Notes under the pieces: generated by a model
Database searches by the model: none
The model's input: only the letters and a program-made list of their open reading frames with translations
What the model was told of the DNA's origin: nothing
Translations under genes and position numbers: made by a program
Shown here: one piece after another, positions 4,293 to 8,353 of the stretch
How the letters are laid out: each line of letters begins with the position of its first letter
How positions within the stretch are numbered: position 1 is the stretch's first letter
NCBI GenBank assembly: GCA_964626665.1
Contig: CAZVGK010000041.1
Location: forward strand, 1,487-22,193
Length of the DNA stretch: 20,707 nucleotides
Reading direction: 5' to 3'
Source of the DNA: an uncultured Gemmatimonadota bacterium
GTDB taxonomy: Bacteria; SM23-81; DAOVCL01

Positions 4293-4382
4293 TTCTACCC
4301 AGCTTTAGCCGGGGTAACCTCTTGGGGGCTTCAGCCCCATAGGGGCCTGAAGGGGCCCAACCCGCACTAAAGTGCGGTAGAA
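4293..4382. repeat. REP-like multi-hairpin cluster
   Basis: Bounded by ttctacc/ggtagaa; internal hairpins ggggct-tc-agcccc, gggcc...ggccc and ccgcact-aa-agtgcgg (4362-4377); ends CTAC/GTAG as in GTAG-type REPs. Confidence 0.65.
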
Positions 4383-4387
4383 CTTGG

Positions 4388-4474
4388 AGATTGCTTCGTC
4401 CCGATTTTCATTGGGACTCGCAATGACAGGCAAAAGAATGGGTCATTGCGAGGAGCAAAGCGACGAAGCAATCT
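4388..4474. repeat. Palindromic element of the GTCATTGCGAG...GAAGCAATCT type (RPE/REP-like), copy 1
   Basis: Outer 13-bp IR agattgcttcgtc/gacgaagcaatct, inner 11-bp IR ctcgcaatgac/gtcattgcgag, nested gtcccga..ttgggac hairpin; related copy at 17814..17981. Confidence 0.8.
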
Positions 4475-4643
4475 TATTCTATGCGCCCATAGCCCGCTCT
4501 CTGGGCTTAATTCTTGCAAGCCACCGATGATACCGCATCAGATGCCCTCATTTGACTGTGGAAGAGCCCTTTCTCTGCTTTCTCGCCTTTGGAATAGCTA
4601 AGCAGTAATCCACCTGGCAATTGATCCTATCTCCCCGGGCAAT

Positions 4644-4759
4644 AATGAAAAGGGGCGGACTTAAATCCGCCCCTTTTACATTCGGCGAGTTTTCGGCTTC
4701 CGCACAAAGCCACGGGAGAAAAACAGAAGCTTACTTACCCGCCTAATTTTTAATTACAA
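4644..4759 (-). ncRNA. Putative sigma54-dependent small RNA (~110-115 nt)
   Basis: Lies between a consensus -24/-12 promoter (predicted +1 near 4759) and an intrinsic terminator; no RBS-supported ORF inside; can fold GGCGGGU/ACUCGCC outer stem and GCUUCUGU/GCGGAAGC inner stem. Confidence 0.6.
4648..4677. terminator. Intrinsic terminator, potentially bidirectional
   Basis: aaaaggggcgga-cttaaa-tccgcccctttt: perfect 12-bp IR with GC-rich core and a T-run on both strands (minus strand reads ...GCCCCUUUUCAUUAUU). Confidence 0.85.
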
Positions 4760-4768
4760 TTAATATGA

Positions 4769-4786
4769 TTGCAAAAACCGTGCCAA
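4769..4786 (-). promoter_or_regulatory. Sigma54 (RpoN) -24/-12 promoter
   Basis: Minus strand reads TTGGCACGGTTTTTGCAA, matching TGGCACG-N4-TTGCW with exact spacing; about 170 nt downstream of a sigma54 activator gene. Confidence 0.88.
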
Positions 4787-4848
4787 ATTCAGATAATATA
4801 GAAAAAAATTAAGAGGAAGCTAACTGCTCGTTTTAAAAGGGTTTACAG

Positions 4849-4936
4849 GACAACCAAATTAATTTGTCTCAGAGGAGATAGCATGGATAGGCTTATAACC
4901 GCCAAAATTGACGATTAAGAAGATACAAATTTGGTA
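4849..4936. promoter_or_regulatory. Candidate upstream activator sequences for the sigma54 promoter
   Basis: Perfect palindrome caaattaatttg (4855-4866, about -100) and caaatttg (4926-4933, about -170), in the usual enhancer distance range; AT-rich background weakens significance. Confidence 0.35.
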
Positions 4937-4956
4937 ACCATTTAATTATTAAGAAG

Positions 4957-7900
4957 TTAGTTATTCGCCACAAATGACGATCCAGAAAGCTCAACGAGGC
5001 CCCCTCCCTCCAACTCATATTTTCTCATCTTCCTCCTAAGGGTAGCCTCGGGGATTTTTAGGAGCGTAGCTGCCTTTGTCTTCACCCATTTGCTCCTCTG
5101 TAGGGCCCCTAAAATGTTCTCCCTCTCAAACTCGGCTAACTGATGGGGAAGAGATCCGGGCCCCTGTTCATCCAAGGTAAACACCTGTGACCTCAGGGCA
5201 GGAGAGAGATGTTCTGGGGAAATAAACCTATCACCGGAGGCTAAGATCGTGGCCCTCTCCACCTCGTTTTTTAACTGTCTTACATTCCCCGGCCAGTGGT
5301 AGGCCGTCAGAAGCTCCATCGCCTCCTTGTTTACCCCCTTTACCTCTCCCCCCCTCTTCTCCGTGAAGAGTTCCAGAAAATGGTAGATGAGTGGAGGGAT
5401 ATCCTCCTCCCTTTCCCTTAAGGGGGAAAGCCTTATCTCCACCCCGGTGAGCCTGTAGTAGAGGTCCTTACGGAACCTGCTGGCCTCTACAGCCTTCTCC
5501 AAGTCCTTATTGGTGGCCGAGATTATGCTCACCTCTATCTTCCGAGATCTGGTTTCTCCCAACCTCCTTATCTCCATCTCCTCTAATACCCTAAGGAGCT
5601 TGGCCTGTAGCCACTCACTGGCATTGGCCACCTCATCTAAGAAGAGGGTCCCCCCCTGGGCCTCCTCAAATAGCCCCTTCTTATCCTGTATAGCATTGGT
5701 AAAGGAACCTTTCTTATGACCGAAAAACTCGCTCTCCAGGAGGGTATCGGTAAAGGCAGCGCAGTTTACCGGCACAAAATTTTTGTTGCGCCTTTGGCTG
5801 CTATAGTGAAGGGCCCGGGCAATAAGCTCTTTGCCCGTCCCTGTCTCCCCAGTGATCAGGATGGGGAGATAAGAATCCTTGAAGCTATTGGCAGTTCTCA
5901 GAGCCTCCTCCATCTGAGGGTTAATGGTCACTATGCTCCCGAAACCATACTTCTCCTCCAATCTCTCCCTGAGATAGAGGTTTTCCCTGAGCAGCTCCTC
6001 TTTTTGAAGCTCTGCCGCCTTGAGCTGGAGGATATCAGCCGCGAGGACGAAGAAATTCAGGTCCTTTTGGTCAAATGCCCCTTTGCCCCCAGTTGGGGTG
6101 CGGTCAACATAGAGGAAACCCTCAATGGAGTTGTCCCCAAAGGGGAAAACCATAAAATTCTCCACTTTCTCCTTTTTTAAGGTAGCGAAGACTTGATTAT
6201 GAACCACCGAAGTGCAGATAAACGGCTGACCAGGACTGATTGTTCTACTGGCTAAATTCTTCAAGTAGCTTAAAAGGAATTTGGCCTTTGCGGGGCTCAG
6301 GTTGTACCTGCTCATTAAGGTAAGTTCGCTGTTAGTATTAGGGCGGAAGGCGATAAAACCTCGCTCGGCATGCACTCTCTCGGAGAGAAAACGGAGCAGA
6401 AGCTCCATATCCTCAGGGGAGATGTGGTCAAGCCTATCTAAAGCAGTCCTCTCCTCCCTAATCAGAAGGGAGGAGGCGGCCAATCTCTCCTCCATTTTAA
6501 CCCTCAAGGTCAATATCTCCTTGAGACCATCCTTTTCACTTATCCTTCTAAAAATCCTCTCAGCCGATTCCAACGGCCCCAGGGCCCAGTCTGGATTTGT
6601 CCCGTTCATCTGGGCTTTGGCCAATTCGATCTCCACTAAGCCCTCCTCATAATGGGCCCCCAATCCCTGGAATGTCCTCCTTGCTTCCCTCAGTTGTTCG
6701 ATGGTCCTTCTCCTCCCCTCATCTTTCTGAGGGGCGAGAAGGCTAAACCTGCTCTCTACAAGAATCGTCTTCCCCTGTTCAAACCTTTCCCCAATGGATT
6801 TAAAGACCTCAACGGCCTTGCGGAAATTCGTTTCGGCTGCTCTCTTGTCCCCCTCTGCCTGAGAGATGAGAGCCAGAACCCGATAGCAGCAACCTTCCTC
6901 AAATCCATCTTTCAGGTCCTGAGAGATCCCTAGGGCCTCCTGGGCACACCTCGTGGCCTCTTTTAAATCTCCCCCCGCGGCAAGGTAAAGCTCTGCCCTC
7001 CTCCTCTGCACCTGGTTGACCAGGTCTCCCCGGGGGGCCAACTTCCTGGCAATCTCCCATGTCCTTTGATAGTAGCCAGAAGATGGTTCAAAGTCCCCTT
7101 TTTCTTTAGCCAAATCACCCAAAGATTCCAGGCTCATCGCCTCCTGTCTGGGGTAACTATGCCCCTGACAAAGGCCAAGAGCCTTCTGCAGGAATTTCTC
7201 AGCCTCCCCCCATCTCCTCTGCACTATGTAGATCCTCCCCAAGGAGATGTAACCATTCACGATGGGGAGGGCTTCCCCTATCTTCAGCTTAAGCTCTAAG
7301 CTCGCCTCCAAAAGGTTCAGGGCCTCCCTCCACTTTCCCATCCTCCGGTGGAGGGTACCCAAATTCCCCATCAGGGCCGCTCTTTCCCTCTCCCACTCCA
7401 GAGGGCAGATCCGCAACCCCTTCTGCAAGTACTTCAAAGCCTCATCCCACTCCGCAGTCATAAAGGCGACCTGGGCCAAGCTGTTTATGGCCTTGAGCAT
7501 CCCCTTCTTTTCGTTGATCAATCGGAAGGAGGAGAGGCTATCCTCGAAGTAATCCTTCGCCTCCCTTAGATTGCCCTTACGGAGCGAGATCCTGCCCAGG
7601 CAGTGCTCGGCATCGGCCAAAAGCCCATGTTCGCTGGTAGCCAGAAGCTCCTCAAAGACACCCTGGGCGATCTCCTTTGCCTTGTCATATTCCCCCAACT
7701 CCAGCCGCAGGTTGGCCTCTAAGATAAGCAGCCGGTAGCGCTCCTGCGGCCCGCAAGCCGACCTTTCCACCTTGCCTGTTTGCCTTAGACCATAGCGAAA
7801 CTTTCCCAGCCGATAGAGGCAGTCAGCCAACTCTATGCCTACCTTTGCCCTTGCCTGAGAAAGCGCATTGGATATTTGGAGGCCCTTTCTATATCCCTGG

Positions 7901-7971
7901 CACGCCTCCCGATAATTACCCAACGCCGCCTCCTTGCGGGCTTCCCTGGTTAACCTCTCAAATTCTCCCAT
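4957..7971 (-). CDS. Sigma54-dependent enhancer-binding protein: N-terminal TPR array, GAF-like region, AAA+ domain, Fis-type HTH
   Basis: ~500 aa of TPR-like repeats (e.g. ALMGNLGTLHRRMGKWREALNLLEASL); GAF-like segment ending GFLYVDR...FDQKDLNFF; Walker A GETGTGKE, VNCAA, ESEFFGHKKGSFTNA, Walker B LFLDEV, RFRKDLYYRL, WPGNVRQL; HTH AATLLKIPEATLRRKM. ATG at 7971 has a GGGGAGA RBS (ORF track starts at TTG 7998). No receiver domain. Confidence 0.93.
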   Translation of the reverse strand: MGEFERLTREARKEAALGNYREACQGYRKGLQISNALSQARAKVGIELADCLYRLGKFRYGLRQTGKVERSACGPQERYRLLILEANLRLELGEYDKAKEIAQGVFEELLATSEHGLLADAEHCLGRISLRKGNLREAKDYFEDSLSSFRLINEKKGMLKAINSLAQVAFMTAEWDEALKYLQKGLRICPLEWERERAALMGNLGTLHRRMGKWREALNLLEASLELKLKIGEALPIVNGYISLGRIYIVQRRWGEAEKFLQKALGLCQGHSYPRQEAMSLESLGDLAKEKGDFEPSSGYYQRTWEIARKLAPRGDLVNQVQRRRAELYLAAGGDLKEATRCAQEALGISQDLKDGFEEGCCYRVLALISQAEGDKRAAETNFRKAVEVFKSIGERFEQGKTILVESRFSLLAPQKDEGRRRTIEQLREARRTFQGLGAHYEEGLVEIELAKAQMNGTNPDWALGPLESAERIFRRISEKDGLKEILTLRVKMEERLAASSLLIREERTALDRLDHISPEDMELLLRFLSERVHAERGFIAFRPNTNSELTLMSRYNLSPAKAKFLLSYLKNLASRTISPGQPFICTSVVHNQVFATLKKEKVENFMVFPFGDNSIEGFLYVDRTPTGGKGAFDQKDLNFFVLAADILQLKAAELQKEELLRENLYLRERLEEKYGFGSIVTINPQMEEALRTANSFKDSYLPILITGETGTGKELIARALHYSSQRRNKNFVPVNCAAFTDTLLESEFFGHKKGSFTNAIQDKKGLFEEAQGGTLFLDEVANASEWLQAKLLRVLEEMEIRRLGETRSRKIEVSIISATNKDLEKAVEASRFRKDLYYRLTGVEIRLSPLREREEDIPPLIYHFLELFTEKRGGEVKGVNKEAMELLTAYHWPGNVRQLKNEVERATILASGDRFISPEHLSPALRSQVFTLDEQGPGSLPHQLAEFERENILGALQRSKWVKTKAATLLKIPEATLRRKMRKYELEGGGLVELSGSSFVANN

Positions 7972-7988
7972 CTTTAGCTCTCCCCGGG

Positions 7989-8294
7989 TTATCTCCAAAG
8001 GGAGATGATGAAATATCTGATTTGGGACCAGAGGGAAGCTAACTTCCCTCGCCGCACCCGGCCCTTTTTGGCGGATTTATTTAGAAAAAGGGACTGGGGG
8101 GAGTGGGATGTGCCTCGATCTGGAAGCACAATGGCACTGGTGTCAGGGTTGGTCGAACCATCTTTGTTTTGGTTATAGATGTCATCCCAGGGCTCGGCCT
8201 CATTGTAGTCCACACCCGATCCCGCAGTAGAGAGGGATGTCCCTCCTAATCCCAGCAGAAGGATGGCTGTCGCCAACATTAGTTTTCTCTTCAT
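7989..8294 (-). CDS. Small protein with N-terminal signal peptide, putative secreted pro-peptide
   Basis: MKRK + hydrophobic LMLATAILLLGLGG + SLSTA|G cleavage-like site; RBS AAAAGGA upstream (ATG 8294 or GTG 8297); stop 17 nt before the activator start; directly behind a sigma70 promoter. Confidence 0.75.
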   Translation of the reverse strand: MKRKLMLATAILLLGLGGTSLSTAGSGVDYNEAEPWDDIYNQNKDGSTNPDTSAIVLPDRGTSHSPQSLFLNKSAKKGRVRRGKLASLWSQIRYFIISLWR

Positions 8295-8324
8295 CACACC
8301 GGTCCTTTTAATGATTTCACCTAA

Positions 8325-8353
8325 TTAATAACAAATTTGTTCCCCTTTGTCAA
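8325..8353 (-). promoter_or_regulatory. Sigma70-type promoter for the small protein / activator operon
   Basis: Minus strand TTGACA-N17-TATTAA with TGn extended -10; the spacer holds the perfect palindrome AACAAATTTGTT (8330-8341). Confidence 0.7.

Follow-up and report, generated by a model that had tools for sequence, protein, structure and literature searches.

A candidate sigma-54 cassette that links a small exported protein, a TPR-containing activator and a putative small RNA in an uncultured Gemmatimonadota bacterium

The window analysed here, a stretch of 20,707 nucleotides (nt) from the contig CAZVGK010000041.1 (positions 1,487 to 22,193) of an uncultured Gemmatimonadota bacterium, contains a compact locus of ~3.7 kb that lies entirely on the minus strand (8353 to 4648 in the numbering of the whole window, which is used throughout). 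In this locus, the gene for a small protein with a predicted signal peptide directly precedes the gene for a sigma-54 activator with a large tetratricopeptide repeat (TPR) sensor, and is followed, past the activator gene, by a -24/-12 promoter and a short stretch that ends in a terminator (Table 1). The linkage of the small open reading frame (ORF) with the activator recurs throughout the genus and in a distant lineage from another phylum. We tentatively read the locus as a self-contained sigma-54 cassette in which the small protein, or a piece of it, would be the cognate ligand of the TPR/GAF sensor and its export the controlled variable, a reading that we put somewhat short of an even chance.

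Within the genus, the comparison covers the window's genome (G000; 3.17 Mb, 99.65% complete) and two other species (G001 and G002), which carry 6, 4 and 13 modules of this kind, respectively. A small ORF with a signal peptide lies upstream of the activator gene and in the same orientation in 23/23 loci of the three species with upstream DNA available, with 2–24 nt between its stop codon and the activator start in 22 of these loci; the small proteins are 101–124 amino acids (aa) long and the activators ~930–1010 aa. A sigma-54 promoter follows the activator in all 21 loci that have at least 400 nt of downstream sequence (17 of these promoters were found by pattern and 4 by eye, including two that have TTGT at -12 and one at a distance of 470 nt). 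The window's genome encodes five full-length activator paralogues and one that is apparently split over two contig ends, and each of the paralogues there has a small ORF directly upstream and a -24/-12 promoter 175–320 nt downstream. Compared with the window activator, its orthologues in the other two species show 78% and 74% identity; in G002, the module as a whole has the opposite orientation with respect to the HNH-trpS-scpAB genes, and therefore behaves as a unit. The split sixth module has its small ORF and TPR portion on G000 C26:1-1601, and its AAA+ and helix-turn-helix (HTH) portion, promoter and class A leader (described below) on C9:87254-88320.

The same pair of genes is found at a much greater distance. 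An activator homologue with 23–31% identity is present in a genome of another phylum (G025), and the order of this genome, where the close relatives are mostly named Candidatus Zixiibacteriota, constitutes the second lineage (the Zixibacteria-titled order). A single activator orthologue of ~980 aa is encoded in 61/61 genomes of this order, and a co-oriented upstream ORF (79–131 aa), with a signal peptide followed at once by E-x-P-W-D, accompanies it in 20/20 loci, two of which have the variants P-F or A-W, and in 9/9 further loci; the small ORF and the activator gene are 62 nt apart in the G025 locus. The universal single-copy pattern in this lineage suggests a core function.

The small protein of the window starts with a segment rich in Lys and Arg, continues with a hydrophobic core and reaches an A-x-G/A-x-A type end, i.e. 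a predicted signal peptide, called by inspection of the n, h and c regions rather than with predictor software. The family shares one plan (alignment A3): the signal peptide is followed by an invariant Pro-Trp pair (P35 and W36), embedded in an 'AAEPW' context or 'AEPW(D)' motif directly after the predicted cleavage site, then by a linker rich in Ser, Gly, Pro and Asn, and finally by an amphipathic tail, basic and rich in Trp, which differs from one subfamily to the next and is conserved inside each. The proline codon of the invariant pair differs between family members (CCC, CCT, CCG, CCA), and the tail substitutions between orthologues are synonymous or conservative, so that the family appears to be under selection at the peptide level. 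A nucleotide motif (CCGTGG) common to the loop of the RNA described below was considered as the cause of the Pro-Trp invariance and rejected on account of the same codon variation. The protein belongs to no Pfam family, its profile yielded 19 matches only, among 1.84 billion representatives, and a look-up in the ESM Atlas returned sub-threshold leads only.

The activator ORF was listed from TTG 7998 (1013 aa), and the likelier start is ATG 7971, which is located behind GGGGAGAG, as in the orthologues. Pfam recognizes TPR_12 (E 3e-31)/TPR_MalT, Sigma54_activat (PF00158; E 9.3e-65, residues 690–855 of the 1013-aa ORF), AAA_lid_14 and HTH_8 (E 2e-11) in this protein, and no receiver domain. The AAA+ domain contains the Walker A (GETGTGKE) and Walker B (LFLDEV) motifs, and the sigma-54 contact loop of the window activator and its two orthologues reads GSFTNA, with F and T kept and two other positions off GAFTGA; several paralogues have the canonical loop. 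With the Walker motifs, the Fis-type HTH, a single rpoN gene in the genome and the -24/-12 promoter, the protein has the makings of a bacterial enhancer-binding protein (bEBP), and activation of sigma-54 transcription is predicted. An AlphaFold2 model of the activator, built with the paralogue alignment and with a mean predicted local distance difference test score (pLDDT) of 86, consists of a TPR superhelix (residues 1–500), an alpha/beta domain (505–625), a long helix, AAA+ and HTH; the N-terminal sensor, modelled in the same way (pLDDT 90), has ~12 TPR pairs. The label 'GAF-like' for the alpha/beta domain is plausible because the precomputed Pfam list gives PF01590 for two paralogues; Pfam makes no GAF call in the window activator itself. 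Foldseek matches the AAA+ domain to the structures of NtrC1, ZraR and FleQ (TM score by target up to 0.94) and of LuxO, and the best matches of the sensor in the PDB are long TPR superhelices that hold extended peptides, namely TSK-H3.1, LGN/Pins, OGT and APPBP2. There is no RRNPP receptor among the 50 listed structural matches of the sensor.

The predicted complex of the sensor (residues 1–630) with the mature small protein scores 0.57, compared with 0.00 for the best of three controls; the mark for this score is reached by 58/80 solved complexes and 2/110 mismatched pairs, and those that reach it with no more than 0.60 comprise 7/80 solved complexes and both passing mismatches. The runs have at least 49% of the contacts in common, with the pLDDT of the partner at 37 or above. 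This model amounts to a weak signal, a modest rise in the odds that the small protein binds the sensor and nothing more. Domains are shuffled among the paralogues (alignment A4): the window AAA+ domain is 73–78% identical to those of C15, C12 and related G002 types, with only 26–28% identity in the TPR region, and the window TPR region is closest (37–41%) to those of several G002 and C2-type paralogues, in which the AAA+ domain is only 43–51% identical. Two G002 loci, L059 and L060, encode identical 113-aa small proteins together with mosaic activators that are 84–96% identical in columns 1–100 and 301–500 and 42–59% identical elsewhere (35% in the last columns), a pattern suggesting recombination in which the small protein stays with portions of the TPR sensor.

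Upstream of the pair, the sequence from TTGACA through TATTAATT is nearly identical in both orthologous loci (G001 and G002), and the -35 and -10 hexamers of this sigma-70-like promoter are invariant; the promoter is absent from the list of the consensus scanner because the last base of its -10 hexamer is A. A perfect palindrome, AACAAATTTGTT (8341-8330, minus strand), extends across the spacer and the -10 hexamer, with one base different in the G002 orthologue, and might be an operator for autoregulation or for another regulator. At the junction of the two genes, a predicted hairpin joins the Shine-Dalgarno sequence of the activator to the final codons of the small ORF (z -3.7 in the window and -3.2 in the G001 orthologue, against mononucleotide shuffles). 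This sequestering hairpin is inconsistent across the paralogues, with several paralogue folds no better than shuffles. The hairpin suggests translational coupling of the small ORF and the activator, and such tight coupling, in turn, suggests that both proteins would be made in a fixed proportion, as partners are.

Downstream of the pair, an exact match to TGGCAC-N5-TTGCA begins 172 nt past the activator stop codon, and the orthologues have TGGCATAGATTTTGCA and TGGCATAAATTTTGCT at the corresponding place. The window's genome contains 10 exact sigma-54 sites, compared with 0 for the reversed control. At least one hit with no more than one mismatch appeared in 33 of 100 shuffles; because shuffles often give single hits, a single consensus hit in 20 kb is not significant alone, and the case for the promoter rests on its conservation. 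Two inverted repeats in front of the promoter are candidate enhancers. The pattern CGYCA-N4/5-TGRCG occurs eight times in the 3.17 Mb of the genome, twice at this promoter, 66 bp apart; each orthologue has two copies at matching places, and the paralogues have different repeats in the corresponding position. Locus-specific repeat pairs of this kind are what cognate enhancers would look like.

The RNA that this promoter would produce has a predicted folding energy of -47.8 kcal/mol (z -5.5; 0/200 shuffles as good). Its core is invariant in 63 of 66 bases across the three species, with diverged intergenic DNA on the flanks, and its terminator stem, which the terminator scanner did not pick up, differs in sequence in all three orthologues, with the pairing kept by compensatory changes. 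The three genomes contain 11 copies of the core hairpin, comprising the three sigma-54-driven orthologues and one copy in the leader of another module (C15), with the rest elsewhere. Across these copies, 93.6% of the cells pair, and 6/17 pairs change on both sides, compared with 2.1 +/- 1.0 in shuffles, of which 0/500 reach the observed value; slid registers of the hairpin are only 38–52% paired, and the apical loop is nearly invariant while the stems covary. To judge from the alignment, the core structure is real and selected, and the hairpin belongs to a wider family of elements and is not peculiar to the window locus. Copies without a sigma-54 promoter are found at G000 C10:42334-42389, C10:53181-53210 (after ftsZ) and C15:67814-67866, on C140 in G001, and on C73, C112 and C85 in G002; an A/T-rich repeat of the TTCATTCTTAATTC type lies in front of most of them, and the copy after ftsZ is kept in two species.

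Neither the window nor 10 paralogous loci contain a match to an Rfam family at its gathering score, and a search of positions 4500-5000 with E values up to 10 returned chance-level hits only, with Qrr not matched. Searches for complements of the loop (exact 10-mers, and duplex energies seeded with 8-mers at 2578 sites) returned, besides the antisense of the hairpin copies, only hits in coding sequences, for example in a ComF-like gene on C26, with energies within background; likewise, the pairing of the RNA with the small-ORF mRNAs is no better than background. A split complementarity to the loop (10 + 8 nt, 17 nt apart) is found in the leaders of genes for secreted proteins of 716–727 aa in three paralogous modules; it is outside the top 30 of the duplex-energy list and is a lead only.

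The window module alone ends as a stand-alone candidate small RNA; the promoters of the paralogues lead into structured leaders and surface-protein operons. All five other modules of the window's genome proceed from the promoter through a structured, repeat-rich leader of 0.5–1.2 kb to a ~55-aa ORF and then to genes for secreted proteins. These secreted proteins are large, start with a signal peptide and combine beta-helix, BNR or cohesin domains with FlgD_ig, Por_Secre_tail or CHU_C (type IX) sorting domains. Type IX sorting of the paralogue outputs fits a link between export and the regulon. The activator family thus probably controls the cell exterior, in agreement with the general theme of the abstract of PMC3162934.

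The leaders after the paralogue promoters fall into two classes, class A (6 loci) and class B (11 loci), neither with an Rfam match. Class A, ~130 conserved nt directly after the promoter, is found in G000 on C15, C12 and C9 (L078, L079, L082) and in G002 at L054, L057 and L062, and contains CUUUCCUCC, which resembles an anti-Shine-Dalgarno sequence, along with a GGGACAGGGC...GCCCUGUCCCACC hairpin. Class B, a conserved RNA of 130–160 nt, is found in G000 on C2 and C39 (L004, L005) and at nine loci of G001 and G002 (alignment A8); it starts with the CCGUGGCUU motif, which is similar to the loop of the window RNA, and has a long-range pairing with 35 predicted pairs, three of them changed on both sides, that tolerates inserted hairpins. 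The first gene after the leaders belongs to a family of highly charged ~55-aa ORFs (L078:855-1013, plus strand, four other G000 modules and three G002 modules), which start with MESD, have LELDQE-PPKKK-LWQK in the middle and end in DPSDW or DLDDW, without a Pfam family. The acidic C-terminus of this protein could be a TPR ligand, in which case it would close a feedback loop.

The neighbours of the cassette are housekeeping genes (radical-SAM enzyme, aminotransferase, HNH nuclease, TrpS, ScpA/B, Cmk, ribosomal protein S1 and aconitase), and there is no kinase gene among the genes of the window. The gap between the RNA terminator and the convergent aminotransferase gene (4300-4640) is occupied by dense short interspersed repeats, such as the hairpin GGTGGCAGAACCC...TTCTGCCACC and CGCAAAG- or ATTCGTG-type words; repeats of this type are present in many intergenic regions of the genome and are also inserted into class B leaders.

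Table 1. Coordinates of the cassette features in the window.
Feature	Position	Strand	Remarks
Sigma-70-like promoter of the two-gene operon (putative)	8325..8353	-	TTGACA 8353-8348, 17-nt spacer, TATTAA 8330-8325
Small exported protein, 101 aa	7989..8294	-	ATG 8294, stop 7989; 102 aa if started at GTG 8297
Junction of small ORF and activator	7960..8010	-	17 nt from small-ORF stop to activator ATG; predicted hairpin
Sigma-54 activator (bEBP), 1004 aa	4957..7971	-	TPR superhelix, GAF-like alpha/beta domain, long helix, AAA+, Fis-type HTH
Distal inverted repeat TCGTCA-N4-TGGCGA, candidate enhancer	4965..4980	-	overlaps the last codons of the activator; putative binding site
Proximal inverted repeat TCGTCA-N4-TGGCGG, candidate enhancer	4899..4914	-	~115 nt upstream of the -24 element; putative binding site
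Sigma-54 promoter TGGCACGGTTTTTGCA (-24 GG, -12 GC)	4770..4785	-	exact consensus match
Candidate sigma-54-dependent small RNA, ~112 nt	4648..4759	-	5' end placed by promoter spacing; 3' end at the T run
Core hairpin of the RNA	4681..4746	-	two helices, conserved C/U-rich apical loop UUUCUCCCGUGGCUUUG
Intrinsic terminator	4648..4677	-	GGGGCGGA / TCCGCCCC stem (8-bp G+C hairpin), then TTTT

An earlier reading of this DNA from its letters alone (the sequence-only reading) had described most of this anatomy: a sigma-70 promoter on the minus strand, a signal-peptide protein of ~101 aa, an activator with TPR, AAA+ and HTH regions without a receiver domain or a nearby kinase, and a consensus sigma-54 promoter with a terminator ~110 nt further on. 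All these elements are borne out, the activator with its start corrected, and the proposal that they form one unit is strengthened by the linkage in the genus and the distant loci, and by the presence of the RNA and terminator in two other species. The GAF-like domain of that reading stands as a plausible alpha/beta domain, with PF01590 in two paralogues, but without a Pfam call in the window protein. The proposed survey of homologues came out in part, with the upstream ORF and the downstream promoter present throughout the genus, but with the stand-alone terminated RNA confined to the orthologue group of the window and no consensus promoter in the distant lineage.

In the reading that we favour, a sigma-70-type promoter would transcribe two translationally coupled genes, the first encoding a small, largely disordered, Sec-exported protein and the second a cytoplasmic activator with an N-terminal TPR superhelix and a GAF-like domain in place of a receiver domain. 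A ligand–receptor pair is favoured because the small ORF and the TPR activator are always linked, tightly coupled and distributed in the pattern of a core function. An export-coupled partner switch with the logic of FlgM and ExsE, where the precursor would bind the cytoplasmic sensor and Sec export would remove it, is slightly preferred; alternatively, still within this reading, a processed peptide would be re-imported. The active activator would bind at the two inverted repeats near the downstream end of its own gene and thereby open the -24/-12 promoter. The product of the window module would be the ~112-nt terminated RNA, acting in trans via the conserved C/U-rich hairpin loop, and the paralogous modules would yield a structured leader and, behind it, operons that encode surface proteins with a type IX sorting domain. 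Of this scheme, the anatomy, its conservation, the linkage of the genes and the RNA structure are shown; that the small protein binds, which way it acts, the use of the repeats as enhancers, and the transcription and targets of the RNA are inferred.

Several considerations weigh against this interpretation. A Sec signal peptide normally clears a protein fast from the cytoplasm, so that an encounter there is unexpected, and we know of no precedent for a Sec-exported anti-activator. If all modules of a genome, 6 to 13 of them, responded to one common 'export state', the paralogues would be redundant, and the expansion of the modules looks more like private signalling channels, a possibility that the many cognate-looking pairs and the mosaic paralogues of the L059/L060 type appear to keep alive. 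Binding of the small protein would rest on a complex score at a level at which most passes are false unless the pairing was already probable, and the contact loop is GSFTNA, not GAFTGA. On the side of the RNA, the core hairpin is seen also away from sigma-54 promoters and beside short interspersed repeats, so that a repeat, domesticated or passive, may make up part of the 'small RNA'; Hfq was not found in the genome, and the searches yielded no convincing RNA target. Finally, there is no consensus sigma-54 promoter adjoining the pair in the Zixibacteria-titled loci examined (20 + 9), and the adjacent promoter–RNA unit is therefore a feature of the window's genus. A bolder interpretation, which we consider unlikely, is that of a diderm ligand system new in kind, with an E-P-W-D mini-protein read by a TPR/GAF sensor, universal and single-copy in one order, multiplied to 6–13 channels in the genus, which would control type-IX-sorted surface proteins, and equipped in the window module with a trans-acting RNA that may link the channels; the ligand could reach the sensor through re-import of a fragment, through capture before export or as the cleaved signal peptide.

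The sequence-only reading had proposed RRNPP-like quorum sensing, whereby the exported protein is cut, the peptide accumulates outside, is re-imported and binds in the TPR groove, so that each paralogue is a private channel. The RRNPP signature, as laid out in passages of PMC10075063, comprises five criteria, including a Sec-secreted propeptide of 10–100 aa, a receptor of 250–500 aa, C-terminal TPRs and direct adjacency; three of the five agree with the cassette (secreted small protein, TPRs in the receptor, direct adjacency), but a receptor of ~1000 aa and N-terminal TPRs are outside the signature, and a propeptide of 101–124 aa is at or beyond its bound. Further in keeping with such signalling, the modules are multiplied (6 in G000, 13 in G002) and their tails are subfamily-specific, as with the Rap-Phr families, and the complex prediction, similar to a check that the sequence-only reading had called for, came out above its controls (0.57 versus 0.00), although only weakly. 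RRNPP peptides, however, usually re-enter through an Opp-type permease, and neither SBP_bac_5/OppA (PF00496) nor PTR2 has a match in the 99.65% complete genome, with PF00496 found in control genomes; one OPT-family oligopeptide transporter is present, so import by another route is possible. Moreover, the organism is a diderm, given that Omp85-family proteins are present, the structural comparison with RRNPP receptors, likewise called for, retrieved none among the 50 listed matches, and the single-copy pair in 61/61 Zixibacteria-titled genomes is a housekeeping pattern, not the patchy pattern of a pheromone. The most conserved motif, E-P-W-D, is common to paralogues and phyla, and E-P-W, being common to all paralogues, cannot be a private signal or encode specificity. 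With the receptor size, the TPR order, the diderm envelope and the missing OppA all against it, RRNPP-like re-import is not supported in the form proposed, and we regard this scheme as improbable.

Two further explanations would each dispense with part of the cassette. The small ORF could be a cis-acting leader of the SecM, MifM or VemP type, the signal peptide of which engages the export machinery while the Trp-rich tail slows or arrests the ribosome, so that translation of the activator reports on export and the TPR region senses something else. The layout is that of a secretion monitor (an export signal, a low-complexity spacer, a conserved C-terminal segment and a stop codon 2–24 nt before the regulated gene), in the folds predicted for the window and its G001 orthologue the final codons of the small ORF mask the Shine-Dalgarno sequence of the activator, and the tail, conserved at the peptide level, presumably resembles the arrest segments of MifM and SecM. 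Nevertheless, the regulated gene is no secretion factor, the C-terminus lacks a proline-type arrest motif, and the sequestering hairpin is inconsistent across paralogues; such a leader would also leave unexplained the invariant E-P-W beside the cleavage site and the constant linkage of a sensor with 12 TPR pairs, and would be at odds with the weak pass of the predicted complex. We thus give it a low probability. The RNA, for its part, could be no regulator at all, but a terminated remnant of a sigma-54 leader or a captured interspersed hairpin repeat, with the surface-protein operons as the real output and the small protein merely co-transcribed. That the five other modules of the genome lead through structured leaders to secreted proteins, that the core hairpin is found in the C15 leader and at sites without a sigma-54 promoter, and that the searches made found no target all speak for this possibility, and the small RNA output postulated by the sequence-only reading is borne out as a conserved element of the window orthologue group but not as the general product of the modules, given that the paralogue promoters lead into surface-protein operons and the hairpin is multi-copy. 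Yet the promoter, the 66-nt core and the compensatory terminator are kept in three species with activators 74–78% identical and diverged flanks, the unit is inverted together in G002, the apical loop is nearly invariant in 11 copies on covarying stems, and the small ORF remains linked to the activator across two phyla; a passive RNA with an incidental small protein is an outcome that we would not expect.

Most sigma-54 activators respond to phosphorylation or to small molecules. A 500-residue TPR sensor that is always encoded behind a tiny exported protein points to another input, a protein or peptide ligand or the state of export, and there is a real chance that the favoured cassette represents a new type of input to a sigma-54 activator. 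Given that all sampled genomes of one order of an uncultured phylum contain the pair and that another lineage has amplified it, the pair probably governs a central property of the cell surface. The cassette is compact and has its own candidate enhancer, promoter and RNA output, which makes heterologous testing possible; if it works there, it could serve directly as an orthogonal switch. The catalogue also gains two families of mini-proteins and three structured RNA motifs, all unclassified.

The closest precedents on the output side are sigma-54 activators that drive small RNAs, i.e. LuxO-Qrr in Vibrio, GlrR-GlmY and CbrB-CrcZ. The cassette shares with LuxO-Qrr an NtrC-family AAA+ protein with a Fis-type HTH, a -24/-12 promoter and, as the candidate direct product, a short terminated RNA; it differs in that the activator has no receiver domain and no kinase nearby, its input being a TPR plus GAF-like sensor, and in that the RNA has no Rfam match, Qrr included, in a genome where Hfq was not found. 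As one-component activators in which a sensory domain or a partner gates the AAA+ ring, NifA, NorR, FhlA and DmpR/XylR, along with the trans-inhibited PspF-PspA and NifL-NifA systems, are comparable; the modelled order of a GAF-like domain and a long helix ahead of AAA+ resembles NifA and NorR in particular, but, unlike in the bEBPs with GAF or other ligand domains, the sensor of the window activator adds ~12 TPR pairs (500 aa) before the GAF-like domain, and the candidate partner is an exported mini-protein.

On the input side, FlgM-sigma28 and ExsE-ExsC-ExsD-ExsA involve secreted anti-regulators that lack a Sec signal peptide and are exported by the flagellar or a type III apparatus. By analogy, the window protein is a small, largely disordered putative regulator, the export of which could free or engage a transcription factor with a regulon of exported proteins; the differences are its Sec signal peptide and the conjectural status of its binding and direction of control. 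The secretion-monitor leader peptides SecM, MifM and VemP are likewise encoded immediately ahead of the gene that they regulate and run from an N-terminal export signal through a spacer to a conserved C-terminal segment, but in the window the downstream gene encodes a transcription activator, and the proline-type arrest motif is absent. The RRNPP systems (Rap, NprR, PlcR, PrgX and AimR) share the arrangement of a small protein with a Sec signal beside a TPR regulator, with several cognate pairs per genome; the output of the window regulator, however, is an AAA+ sigma-54 motor, as opposed to an XRE-type HTH or a phosphatase, its conserved motif is at the N-terminus of the mature protein, as opposed to a C-terminal peptide, and neither the sequences nor the folds, including the 50 listed structural matches, gave evidence of a common origin. 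The sequence-only reading had called the combination undescribed, and this still stands: neither Pfam nor Rfam offers a fit, and no TPR-containing sigma-54 activator paired with a secreted mini-protein was found described in the literature searched. The sigma-54 activator, TPR sensing and the sigma-54-dependent small RNA are thus of known kinds, and what is apparently new is their combination, together with the mini-protein family and the RNA motifs.

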